DNA from: a virus
Taxonomy: Duplodnaviria; Heunggongvirae; Uroviricota; Caudoviricetes
DNA length: 64,000 bases
Reading direction: 5' to 3' (one strand)
Virus record (IMG/VR): IMGVR_UViG_2541047117_000001
Span: 88,841-152,840 of that record
Shown: positions 32,750 to 35,125 of the stretch, in pieces
Numbering within the stretch: the stretch's first letter is position 1
Layout: every line of letters starts with the position of its first letter
Position numbers and translations under genes: made by a program
Notes under the pieces: model-generated
Seen by the model: only the letters and a program-made list of their open reading frames with translations
Database searches by the model: none
Told to the model about the DNA's origin: nothing

Positions 32750-32878
32750 TGTTGGTGAGCAACATAAAAACTCAATACACATTCTAGACGTAGGAGCTAG
32801 ACGTTGACAAGCAACATAAAAACTTGAATGATGTGGACGCAGGGGAGTAGCGCCACGTAAAAAACATAACAGCTCCTT
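32750..32878 (+). ncRNA. Three tandem H-type pseudoknots (PK1-3)
   Basis: Manual pairing; compensatory stem-2 change between PK1 and PK2. Confidence 0.65.
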
Positions 32879-32881
32879 TAA

Positions 32882-32955
32882 GCCGACTTAGCTCAGCAGG
32901 TTAGAGCGGTTGCCTTGTAAGCAACAGGTCGTGGGTTCGATTCCTACAGTCGGCA
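32882..32955 (+). tRNA. trnT: tRNA-Thr(TGT)
   Basis: GTTGC-CTTGTAA-GCAAC. Confidence 0.95.
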
Positions 32956-32957
32956 TT

Positions 32958-33044
32958 GACGTTTTTACCGAGTCCACGTCGTTAATCTACGATTCGGTAC
33001 GCAAAGCGGTAGGTTCTGCTTGACCTATGATATCAAAACAAGCA
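32958..33044 (+). ncRNA. Two tandem H-type pseudoknots (PK4-5)
   Basis: GACGT/ACGTC + TACCGAGT/ATTCGGTA; GTAGGT/ACCTAT + TGCTTG/CAAGCA. Confidence 0.7.
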
Positions 33045-33052
33045 TCCATTAT

Positions 33053-33129
33053 GGCGCATTGGTGAAGCGGTCTAACACACTCGACTTTCTATCGAGCATA
33101 CAGGGGTTCGAATCCCCTATGCGCTACCA
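33053..33129 (+). tRNA. trnE: tRNA-Glu(TTC)
   Basis: Cloverleaf, CCA. Confidence 0.95.
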
Positions 33130-33130
33130 T

Positions 33131-33202
33131 GCCGATTTAGCTCAGAGGTAGAGTAACGTCTTGATAAGGCGGAGGTCAGTGGTTCAAATCCATTAATCGG
33201 TA
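33131..33202 (+). tRNA. trnI: tRNA-Ile(GAT)
   Basis: Cloverleaf; loop TTGATAA. Confidence 0.88.
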
Positions 33203-33210
33203 TCATTTAT

Positions 33211-33284
33211 GAGGAGATGGTGAAGAGGCTTAACACGGTAGGTTGCAACCCTATTATTCGTGGGTTCAAATCCCACTCTTCTCT
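33211..33284 (+). tRNA. trnC: tRNA-Cys(GCA)
   Basis: GTAGG-TTGCAAC-CCTAT; U73. Confidence 0.92.
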
Positions 33285-33298
33285 TAGTTTTGTAGCAT

Positions 33299-33370
33299 GT
33301 GGTATTGGTCTAATGGCTATGATTTCTGACTTCCAATCAGAAGATGAGAGTTCGATTCTCTCATACCACA
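33299..33370 (+). tRNA. trnG: tRNA-Gly(TCC)
   Basis: TCTGA-CTTCCAA-TCAGA. Confidence 0.9.
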
Positions 33371-33379
33371 TCATTTTTT

Positions 33380-33453
33380 ACCCCTATCGCCAAGTGGATT
33401 AAGGCAACGGGCTTCTATCCCGTTATTCGGGAGTTCGAATCTCTCTAGGGGTG
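33380..33453 (+). tRNA. trnR: tRNA-Arg(TCT)
   Basis: ACGGG-CTTCTAT-CCCGT. Confidence 0.92.
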
Positions 33454-33578
33454 TTAGAACTTAATCAGTTTCTTTCTAATGGAAGGCATGGGTCATGCCC
33501 TAATCCAAATATTCCATGTGAAAGTTTTATCTTCGAAAGGCGTTCGAATAAAAAACCAAATGAACCTTTAAGCAATAT

Positions 33579-33663
33579 GGCAGGGTAGTCTAGTGGCAAT
33601 GACAGGAGACTGTAAATCTCCCCTCAATCGAGTTCGTAGGTTCGAGTCCTACCCCTGCCACCA
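33579..33663 (+). tRNA. trnY: tRNA-Tyr(GTA)
   Basis: Long variable arm, CCA. Confidence 0.95.
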
Positions 33664-33666
33664 TAT

Positions 33667-33737
33667 GGAGTTTTAGTTTAACTGGCAAAACACTTGGCGT
33701 AGTCAAGGCGTAATCGGTTCGAGTCCGATAAACTCCT
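33667..33737 (+). pseudogene. Aberrant tRNA with a 5-nt anticodon loop (CGTAG)
   Basis: Intact acceptor, D and T arms; stem CTTGG/TCAAG closes only 5 nt. Confidence 0.7.
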
Positions 33738-33750
33738 CCCTCCCTTCAAT

Positions 33751-33822
33751 GCATCCTTAGTTTAAAGTGAAAACGGACTGCTTAAAAGCCGTTGTATGTG
33801 GGTTCGAACCCCACAGGGTGCA
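33751..33822 (+). pseudogene. Aberrant tRNA with an irregular anticodon arm
   Basis: GCATCCT/AGGGTGC acceptor, TTCGAAC T-loop, no canonical 5-bp/7-nt anticodon arm. Confidence 0.65.
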
Positions 33823-33827
33823 TCTTT

Positions 33828-34640
33828 ACTTCGAGGTTTGGCTCTGATAGCGTAACGTGAGTTGCGTAAAGGCAATGTGACAAGTTGCCACCGTGTAAAC
33901 GGTCAATCCAAGCACAATCGACACTCCTAAGTCATCATTATGATGGTGATAGTTTCATGAAATTACGGAGAAAACGCTACGAGGTCAACGATGTAGTAGC
34001 AGTATTGGTTAGCACCAATACACTCCACGCTAAGGTAATGAAGAAGCGAGAGTGAATCGAGAGATTGTACAGTCCGAGTTTAACAAGCAAGGGCGACAAT
34101 CAGTAATGAAAGAGAAATGGTCGAAAGCCAAAGTAACTTTGATTACGGTTTGAGTAGCTAGTTGGCGAAAGAACATGAAGGCGTGTGGTATTTTGTAATC
34201 CAAAAGATTACGAAGCCACTGAGACAGCACGTCTTCTGTCACACAGACTAATAAGATGTTAGATATGGTAATCCAAAGAGATGATTAAAATATGACTAAT
34301 TAAAATTCATACATACAAGCGAAAGCCTGTCTCCTTACATTACGAAGGCAACCTAAATCCCCACAAGAAGTTGAATGGGGAGCATGATGAGTTCGCAAAA
34401 CTCTGATTGTTTGATAGTGAATTGCATGGTTCTCTTAGCAGAGATTAATAGCGTGGCAACGTTGACAGAATCGGAACTATTGAGTAGTAGTGTAACAGGT
34501 CGCAGAATGCACAGCGACTAATTAAAACGTGCGGTTGTGAGTGATACGTAGTTGCTCCAAAAGAGGATTACGTGGATAAGAGAGGAAGATATAATCTTTC
34601 TAAAGGCACTCAATGCGAGGTTTAATCTCAGCCTACGCAA
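33828..34640 (+). ncRNA. GOLLD-like giant structured RNA (about 810 nt)
   Basis: No credible ORF, dense GNRA-capped stems, lies in a tRNA cluster. Motifs GAGTAGC...GAAAGAACATGA...TGTGGTATTTTG...CAAAAG...CCACTG and 3' TAATCTCAGCCTA match GOLLD as I recall it. Boundaries approximate. Confidence 0.7.
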
Positions 34641-34676
34641 GACCAGTTCTGTTTTTACGGGATTGGATTTTATCTT

Positions 34677-34765
34677 GGAGAGGTACTCAAGTGGCTCAAG
34701 AGGCTTCCCTGCTAAGGAAGTAGGACGCATTGTGCGTTGCGTGGGTTCGAATCCCACCCTCTCCA
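34677..34765 (+). tRNA. trnS: tRNA-Ser(GCT)
   Basis: CTTCC-CTGCTAA-GGAAG, long variable arm. Confidence 0.93.
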
Positions 34766-34769
34766 TTAA

Positions 34770-35125
34770 AGGTGGACTAAGCCTACAAATTAGTCAGGTG
34801 CAAAGGCAACTGCATCATTCCCGAATGGGGGACGATTAAAAATACCATTATCTATCCCGATAAGAGATTGTCTTATCTGATTGCTATCATCGCAGTCACC
34901 GTTGAAGATATCACAACGGTAGACATTGGAAAGTCGCTCTGTTTCTCATATTGAAGGCAAGTGTGGGAGCGATAGAGTTCGTTGACGATGGTTTATGCGA
35001 ACATTATAGACAACTAAATATGAAAAAGTGCAACCTCACATGAGTTTCTTGCACTTCTTATGTGAGTTTTTTCAAATGTATGTAGGTTTCTACCCTAAGC
35101 GTTCCTACTAAATATAAACGGTAAG
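34770..35125 (+). ncRNA. Candidate structured non-coding RNA(s)
   Basis: About 10 consecutive hairpins or pseudoknot-like pairings; no ORF. Confidence 0.45.

Follow-up and report, generated by a model that had tools for sequence, protein, structure and literature searches.

A structured RNA repeat in a phage tRNA island and its relatives beside PBECR4 genes

To our knowledge, only three toxin-antitoxin (TA) families of type III have been recognized, all with ToxN-like toxins, and RNA antitoxin mimicry is known so far mainly from phage PhiTE and from laboratory-selected escape mutants derived from it. In the phage case, a pseudo-ToxI RNA neutralizes ToxN (PMC3475682). Here we describe a structured RNA repeat in the genome of a Caudoviricetes virus (IMG/VR record IMGVR_UViG_2541047117_000001). 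The 64,000-nucleotide stretch that we analyzed, positions 88,841 to 152,840 of that record, is hereafter called the window; coordinates are window positions, and the array, PK4, PK5, the tRNA genes, GOLLD RNA, and the YonK-family gene described below lie on the plus strand. The repeat array occupies 32750-32881, between the genes for tRNA-His and tRNA-Thr, and in the chromosomes and prophages of Firmicutes the same RNA adjoins genes encoding PBECR4 (PF18813), a predicted endoribonuclease. By analogy with known systems, and with a probability that we put at roughly 55%, the phage array would be an RNA antitoxin mimic, or decoy, directed against a PBECR4 toxin of the host or of resident prophages.

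The bacterial relatives of the array resemble the type III systems ToxIN, CptIN, and TenpIN in comprising a promoter, two to four tandem structured units with pseudoknot-type contacts, an intrinsic terminator, and a gene for a predicted endoribonuclease of ~170-310 amino acids. They likewise occur on prophages and plasmids, and the invariant A-rich stretch of each unit is a candidate cleavage site. They differ in that PBECR4 is predicted to adopt the BECR fold and gave no sequence match to ToxN, CptN, AbiQ, or TenpN chains in the PDB and no significant fold match, in that the units are not simple identical repeats but have loops and tails that are re-coded within a fixed, cross-wise pairing order, and in that some PBECR4 loci are convergent. 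The window array, moreover, has no toxin gene. In this respect it is like the pseudo-ToxI of phage PhiTE, a set of antitoxin-like repeats that also lacks a toxin gene, lies in a non-coding region, and varies in repeat number among close relatives (PMC3475682). The RNA and the toxin family are different, however, and the orphan copies described here, which would neutralize a toxin by analogy, occur naturally and in many places: in this phage, in SPbeta-like phages, in Caeruleovirus, and in several IMG/VR contigs, often within tRNA islands. The single motif also recalls the preQ1-I riboswitch (RF00522), a small H-type pseudoknot with a P1 of 4-5 bp, an A-rich 3' tail along P1, and a short loop-tail P2. 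Unlike preQ1-I, it lacks a loop-2 segment and the specificity cytidine, its P2 is freely variable, and in the phage it has no expression platform.

A repeat RNA family between tRNA-His and tRNA-Thr

An earlier note on this DNA, made from the letters and open reading frames alone, had proposed a series of compact H-type pseudoknots filling the tRNA spacers, of which PK1, PK2, and PK3 lie between tRNA-His and tRNA-Thr. PK1, PK2, and the hairpin of PK3 belong to a previously undescribed structured RNA repeat. Together they span 32750-32856 and make up 2.5 units of a repeat of ~52 nt, each unit consisting of a covarying hairpin followed by GUUG-N5-CAAC and an A-run and closed by a 4-mer that is the complement of the final four N5 loop bases. 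A covariance model, R2, built from bacterial arrays only and holding no window or phage sequence, matched window positions 32766-32830 at 64.2 bits (E 2e-12). This match is the PK2 unit, and it is the only copy in the 152.9-kb genome. In a scan of 185,579 species genomes, the motif was found in Bacillales and Clostridia as tandem units of ~53 nt. The bacterial unit has an AUAC-type linker, a hairpin with a covarying stem of 4-5 bp and an AC...G loop, 2-3 bases, and then the GUUG/CAAC stem, the A-run, and the 4-mer. The absence of a named family for these elements, as the note had remarked, was borne out by Rfam 15, which gave no match to the repeat either in the window (32550-35300, E<=10) or in the bacterial arrays (E<=5-10). 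Divergence between the units is too great for Tandem Repeats Finder to list the 52-nt repeat of the window.

The array is bounded on its 5' side by tRNA-His (32678-32748; ARAGORN, and Rfam tRNA at 66.8 bits), and PK1 begins 2 nt past the 3' end of that gene. In PK1 (32750-32774), stem 1 pairs 32750-54 with 32760-64, and the loop UGAG at 32756-59 pairs with CUCA at 32771-74 after an AUAAAAA run. PK1 has no upstream hairpin, as is the case for the first motif of bacterial arrays, and none of the other loci collected has its TGAG/CTCA pair type. The following segment (32775-32802) holds the AUAC-type linker AUACACAUU, the family hairpin CUAG-ACGUAGGAG-CUAG with its stem at 32784-87 and 32797-800, and a terminal AC, and lies within the R2 match. 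PK2 (32803-32826; 70.4 bits with covariance model R1) has stem 1 at 32803-06 and 32812-15, and its loop CAAG at 32808-11 pairs with CUUG at 32823-26. A linker and a second family-type hairpin, which is stem 1 of PK3, then occupy 32827-32856. This hairpin (32833-32856; GUGG-AC...G-CCAC with an extended inner stem) keeps the family signature in alignments: its innermost stem pair is G-C, its loop opens with AC, and a G precedes the 3' strand. The AC...G signature is found in the window at both 32784-32800 and 32833-32856. The remainder, 32857-32881, is a degenerate or truncated third motif that has an A-run without GUUG...CAAC, contains GCUCC, and was matched by neither R1 nor R2. It abuts tRNA-Thr (32882-32955; ARAGORN and Rfam tRNA), the 3' boundary of the array.

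The pairings proposed for PK1 (UGUUG/CAACA and UGAG/CUCA) and PK2 (GUUG/CAAC and CAAG/CUUG) are present where the note placed them, the two share the core GCAACAUAAAAACU, and two stem-2 pairs are changed on both sides. Homologs and covariation identify both as genuine H-type loop-tail pseudoknots with a compensatory change. PK3 fared less well. Its pairings of 6 and 5 bp exist, each with a G-U pair, and its hairpin is backed by homologs and covariation, but stem 2 has no such support, and stem 1 is better described as a bulged 7-bp hairpin, GUGG(A)CGC/GCGCCAC. In the minimum-free-energy fold, AGGAGCU of the first hairpin is an alternative partner for GCUCC, the 3' strand of stem 2, and as a pseudoknot PK3 is not above chance, its top score of 10 being reached in 30% of shuffles. 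Against mononucleotide shuffles, used for all spacer P values, the three H-type candidates of at least 4+4 bp in the His-Thr spacer had a P of ~0.01. Nested-fold z-scores were unremarkable (-1.4 to +0.75).

In a close relative of the phage (L062, 96% protein identity), the second hairpin is identical in sequence, PK1 is absent with 150 nt of unrelated sequence in its place, and PK2 is a variant with GGAAAAA as loop 3, so the array locus appears to turn over quickly. A BLAST search of the His-Thr spacer against 50,697 phage records returned only a 25-nt match of SPbeta type. SPbeta-like phages carry two to three copies of GTTG-N5-CAAC-ATAAAAA-CTTG in a non-coding leader 500-650 nt upstream of yonK.

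Loop-tail pairing and linkage to PBECR4

The stem of the family hairpin is paired in 97.9% of cases, with three pairs changed on both sides and with CG/UA and GC/AU exchanges. Stem 1 of the pseudoknot motif covaries too (GGTG/CACC, GATG/CATC, GCTG/CAGC, and GUCU/GGAC). The contacts between loops and tails were counted in 13 distinct three-motif arrays, using curated 4-mers verified by regular expression, with tails shuffled between arrays as the control. The loop of the first motif was perfectly Watson-Crick complementary to the last tail (L0-q2) in 13/13 arrays with eight pair types, and the loop of the last motif was likewise complementary to the first tail (L2-q0) in 13/13 arrays with four. 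The middle motif made the local contact of an H-type pseudoknot (L1-q1) perfectly in 10 of the 13, with five pair types. This amounts to 36 perfect contacts of 39, as opposed to a shuffled mean of 9.2 and maximum of 20, and to at least 17 complementary pair types overall. In four-motif arrays, loop i matched tail 3-i (Li-q(3-i)) with no exception, and in a two-motif plasmid array the contacts were swapped. The loop-tail contact is real, but it is used more elaborately than in a simple local pseudoknot. In the loop-tail matrix, both complete motifs of the window pair locally and perfectly, TGAG with CTCA and CAAG with CTTG. The G-U variants of the family (CGAG or CAGG opposite CUUG) are consistent with pairing on one strand only, which argues that the motif acts as RNA and not as DNA.

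In L064, L065, L073, and L092, a sigma-A-like promoter is followed by the array, an intrinsic terminator, and a PBECR4 open reading frame (Pfam E 1e-14 to 1e-31). The order of repeats, terminator, and gene on one strand holds in L064, L065, L073, L092, L099, L100, and L103-L110, and the array and gene are convergent in L067, L086, L101, and L102. As a separate observation, the Filifactor villosus contig L092 (oriented 3690-5900) has three array modules in tandem within ~2.5 kb, of which at least two are followed by PBECR4 genes; the outer codes (TTGA/TCAA and CGGA/TCCG) are common to them, and the middle pair differs in one module.

The linkage was also examined in two ways that do not depend on the RNA motif. 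When PBECR4 relatives were taken from metagenomes by protein alone, as loci with flanking DNA, a model match lay next to the gene in 11/11, nine upstream on the same strand and two convergent. When 370 genomes of one order were sampled, 22 had PBECR4 (23 loci), and the seven best-scoring loci all carried the RNA, with none detectable at the other 16. Because only the top-scoring loci carry it, the linkage appears to hold for one PBECR4 subfamily.

By their original definition, PBECR domains are predicted to be endoribonucleases of the BECR fold that resemble colicin D, need no metal, and use a catalytic His (PMC5512222). In the PBECR4 alignment, the NFMHLCG motif has an invariant His. No sequence relative was found in the PDB by single sequence or profile, including the ToxN, CptN, AbiQ, and TenpN chains. 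An AlphaFold2 model of PBECR4 had a predicted local distance difference test score of 90.9; searched against the PDB, it gave no Foldseek match at E<=0.001 and a best VIA Z of 3.5, and the value for the colicin D tRNase, 3.4, is not meaningful alone. PADLOC gave no match for PBECR4 proteins, and we found no paper in which PBECR proteins are connected with type III systems or with a partner RNA.

Several phages, for their part, carry the RNA without a PBECR4 gene. PF18813 had no match in any frame of the complete 152.9-kb genome of this phage, nor was PBECR4 found in any frame of the genomes of L062, phi3T, or Deep Blue. Toxin-less arrays are present in at least four unrelated phage groups, and related units recur in or next to tRNA islands elsewhere: in L164, whose island has 19 tRNAs, between tRNA-Pro and tRNA-Thr; in L140 just before tRNA-Pro; in L160 right behind a tRNA 3' end; and in Hobo, Bc431v3, and Deep Blue, all Caeruleovirus phages, in the Glu-Arg spacer, where the local stem 2 has 6 bp (GACGGG/CCCGUC). 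Further toxin-less arrays or single units are present in the L119 group and in L162/L144. Three viral contigs (L151, L123, and L145) have the array together with PBECR4; these came via the RNA motif, and a peptide-pattern search of IMG/VR returned no PBECR4 relatives.

A decoy reading of the phage array and its alternatives

In bacteria, this RNA would be transcribed from its own promoter and end at a terminator directly beside the gene for PBECR4, a predicted BECR-fold endoribonuclease. Because this layout is that of a type III TA module, we read the RNA as a putative inhibitor, or antitoxin, of an RNase that would itself be toxic. The toxin-less phage array then matches the pseudo-ToxI precedent as well as type III logic, and we read it as an antitoxin mimic. 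The array would be co-transcribed with the tRNAs and its RNA probably excised by RNase P and RNase Z, after which the released RNA would sequester the PBECR4 toxins that the host or its resident prophages encode, so that these stay inactive while the infection runs. Among the roles proposed in the earlier note, that of a protein sponge or decoy fits best, for PK1-PK3 only, since the RNA flanks PBECR4 RNase genes in bacteria and the phage has none; nothing points to blocking of nucleases or to a processing guide.

Several observations weigh against an antitoxin mimic. The 16 lower-scoring PBECR4 loci are without detectable RNA, and the bacterial arrays of L066, L072, L069, L078, and L095 have no PBECR4 gene within the locus. 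Two of these arrays, in L066 and L072, have their ortholog in L086, where it is linked to PBECR4, and all five suggest that the toxin was lost and the RNA retained. In two arrangements the array is convergent with the gene and not upstream of it. The third motif of the window is decayed and L062 lacks PK1, so that erosion of the phage copy is conceivable; the region's best sigma-70-like site overlaps PK2; and the host is placed no closer than Bacillales, so that no matching host toxin can be named.

The truncation of the third motif and the replacement of PK1 in L062, together with the fast turnover of spacers in these tRNA islands, are what would be seen if the array were a decaying, non-functional remnant of an RNA-toxin module or of a mobile repeat that had landed in the tRNA island. 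We consider this unlikely, though worth keeping in mind. Both complete motifs hold perfect and mutually different loop-tail pairs, which drift would not keep, and toxin-less arrays recur in unrelated phages.

Next to PBECR4 genes, this RNA makes up a transcription unit of its own, far from any tRNA in the locus, the SPbeta-like copies lie in the yonK leader where there are no tRNAs, and most spacers of the window island, at 0-13 nt, need no such element. It is thus improbable, at about the level of an outside chance, that the elements are structural spacers, without any toxin link, that guide or insulate tRNA processing or stabilize the polycistronic tRNA transcript, even though they are located in tRNA spacers here and in L164, L140, L160, and Caeruleovirus and end a few nucleotides before tRNA 5' ends (the range of 3-12 nt given in the note is correct, with distances of 3, 8, 9, and 12 nt).

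An action at the DNA level, whether as an operator for a protein or as a promoter (of the sigma-A kind or one used by a YonO-like phage RNA polymerase), has in its favor that PK2 matches TTGACA-17-AATGAT at 10/12 positions, the best site of the region, and that in phi3T the motifs are upstream of yonK, with which the late operon transcribed by YonO begins (PMC5467207). Such sites are not enriched, however, with 11 found against 7.2 +/- 2.9 expected from shuffles; the conserved part would be the promoter spacer, with the -10 region varying across the family; the bacterial arrays have their own promoter upstream and terminator downstream; and the covariation includes G-U pairs on just one of the strands, a sign of RNA. 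We therefore regard a DNA-level role as very improbable. A promoter for the YonO polymerase was rejected, as the motif is missing from SPbeta itself, where the YonO start site has been mapped ~1.2 kb upstream of yonK, between published primers. An SPBRE/MrpR operator was also considered, and yonK is not among the listed target promoters.

Least credible of all is a ligand-sensing or cis-regulatory leader of preQ1-I-like topology controlling a downstream gene through the terminator, for although the compact H-type pseudoknot, the A-rich loop 3, and the terminator before the PBECR4 gene are of that kind, no Rfam riboswitch, preQ1-I included, matched 32550-35300 at E<=10, no loop-2 segment is there to hold a ligand-pairing base (its length is 0 in PK1, PK2, and PK5), the convergent and orphan copies have no gene to regulate, and the loop-tail pairs vary in sequence without restriction, as a ligand pocket would not.

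The wider island and implications of the array

The virus record is complete, at 152,852 bp with terminal repeats. ARAGORN placed 15 tRNA genes on the plus strand between 32059 and 35207, most of them 0-13 nt apart, and the island is flanked by an HU-like gene (31690-31986) on one side and a YonK-family gene on the other. The idea of one series filling all its spacers did not survive: PK1-PK3 form a single array, PK4 and PK5 are unrelated to it in sequence, and the weaker candidates, in the Arg-Tyr spacer (33532-69, P 0.55) and the pre-Trp spacer (35082-120, P 0.94), are at chance level. The series is accordingly not one family, since support from homologs and covariation is confined to PK1, PK2, and the PK3 hairpin.

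The candidate pseudoknots PK4 (32958-32999) and PK5 (33009-33044) lie in the Thr-Glu spacer, and both are statistically unusual against shuffles (two candidates of at least 5+5 bp, P <=0.005). PK4 had been given as 5 + 8 bp; the pairing is present, and it is 5 + 9 bp with one G-U pair. PK5 has the 6 + 6 bp described and an A-rich loop 3. In L062, PK5 is identical, and one G-to-T change in PK4 turns the G-U pair of stem 2 into a U-U mismatch, which is mildly disruptive. Neither has a homolog besides the nearly identical L062, as judged by BLAST of the Thr-Glu spacer against the same phage records, which gave no match, and by a scan of IMG/VR anchored on the tRNA-Thr 3' end. The spacer is hypervariable among relatives, holding tRNA-Asp in Bc431v3 and Hobo, a tRNA-like remnant with an intact T arm in L192, or unrelated sequence. 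It is a replacement hot spot (L192:8578-8670, oriented; L060:963-1037), and in the window PK4 and PK5 are found there. A decayed tRNA was considered for the window spacer and rejected, as it does not align to the Bc431v3, Hobo, or L192 spacers and has no tRNA model match.

Other features of the island are of different kinds. GOLLD RNA (RF02032) was matched at 34176-34634 with 204.6 bits (E 1e-57; gathering score 150), within the range covered by the note, and is a separate element, not a small pseudoknot. It occupies the 851-nt gap 33825-34675 between a tRNA-like gene and tRNA-Ser, the Rfam match being to its 3' domain, and is followed by a terminator-like hairpin at 34643-34666. ARAGORN assigns no identity to the tRNA-like gene (33750-33824), which has an odd anticodon loop and scores only 44.5 bits with Rfam tRNA; its neighbor at 33667-33739 is also low, at 46.7 bits. 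The Gln-His spacer (32625-32667) holds a (TTAGT)7 microsatellite that is shorter in L062. In the Ser-Trp spacer, L062 has a 110-nt insertion (L062:5190-5324), with which the region scores as skipping-rope RNA (RF02924, 47.1 bits); in the window counterpart (34900-34925), only the flanking hairpin CCGTTG...CAACGG is left, with no Rfam match.

The YonK-family gene (35400-35624; PF09642, E 4e-12) lies directly 3' of the tRNA and non-coding RNA island. Its position relative to the repeat array is the same in the window and in SPbeta-like phages, with the phi3T arrays 500-650 nt upstream of yonK. In the latter phages, the leader upstream of the YonO-transcribed late operon is long and non-coding and holds the repeat array, DUF3800-VIII, and skipping-rope (L002, L097, and L098). 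The region before yonK thus looks like a landing pad for non-coding RNAs shared by two very different Bacillus phage groups. In SPbeta (L097 ~440-466, on the strand antisense to yonK), a published primer-extension primer for P(YonO) contains ACATAAAAACTTG, the core of the motif, which may be a relic copy or a coincidence. Going by the adjacent exonuclease gene, Brevibacillus phage Sundance is the closest GenBank relative, with 46% identity, and Tsamsa-like Bacillus phages come next; from these relatives, the host is taken to be some member of Bacillales.

The repeat shares its neighborhoods with the phage orphan non-coding RNAs GOLLD (here), skipping-rope (in L062), and DUF3800-VIII (beside the arrays in the phi3T yonK leader). 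Unlike these, to which it is unrelated in sequence and structure, it alone among them was seen beside a gene for a candidate protein partner. A broader proposal, which we advance tentatively and hold to be possible but not the likelier outcome, is that the RNA and PBECR4 make up a fourth, structurally distinct type III TA (abortive-infection) family. In it, an RNase of the BECR fold, which may be a tRNase of the colicin D or E5 kind, would be held in check by RNA units assembling via programmable loop-tail pairs, and large Bacillales phages would carry toxin-less copies in their tRNA islands, so that RNA decoys and replacement tRNAs are combined in one anti-defense locus.

If true, the pairing of a BECR-fold RNase with a repeat RNA would widen the type III class, and PBECR4, so far only a predicted domain, would gain a partner open to testing. 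An addressable code for RNA assembly is suggested by the way in which the 4-bp loop-tail contacts are re-coded, and phi3T with Bacillus subtilis offers a tractable system for these ideas. Natural toxin-less copies in several phage lineages would make RNA antitoxin mimicry a common form of phage counter-defense, and part of the non-tRNA content of phage tRNA islands would be anti-defense RNA.

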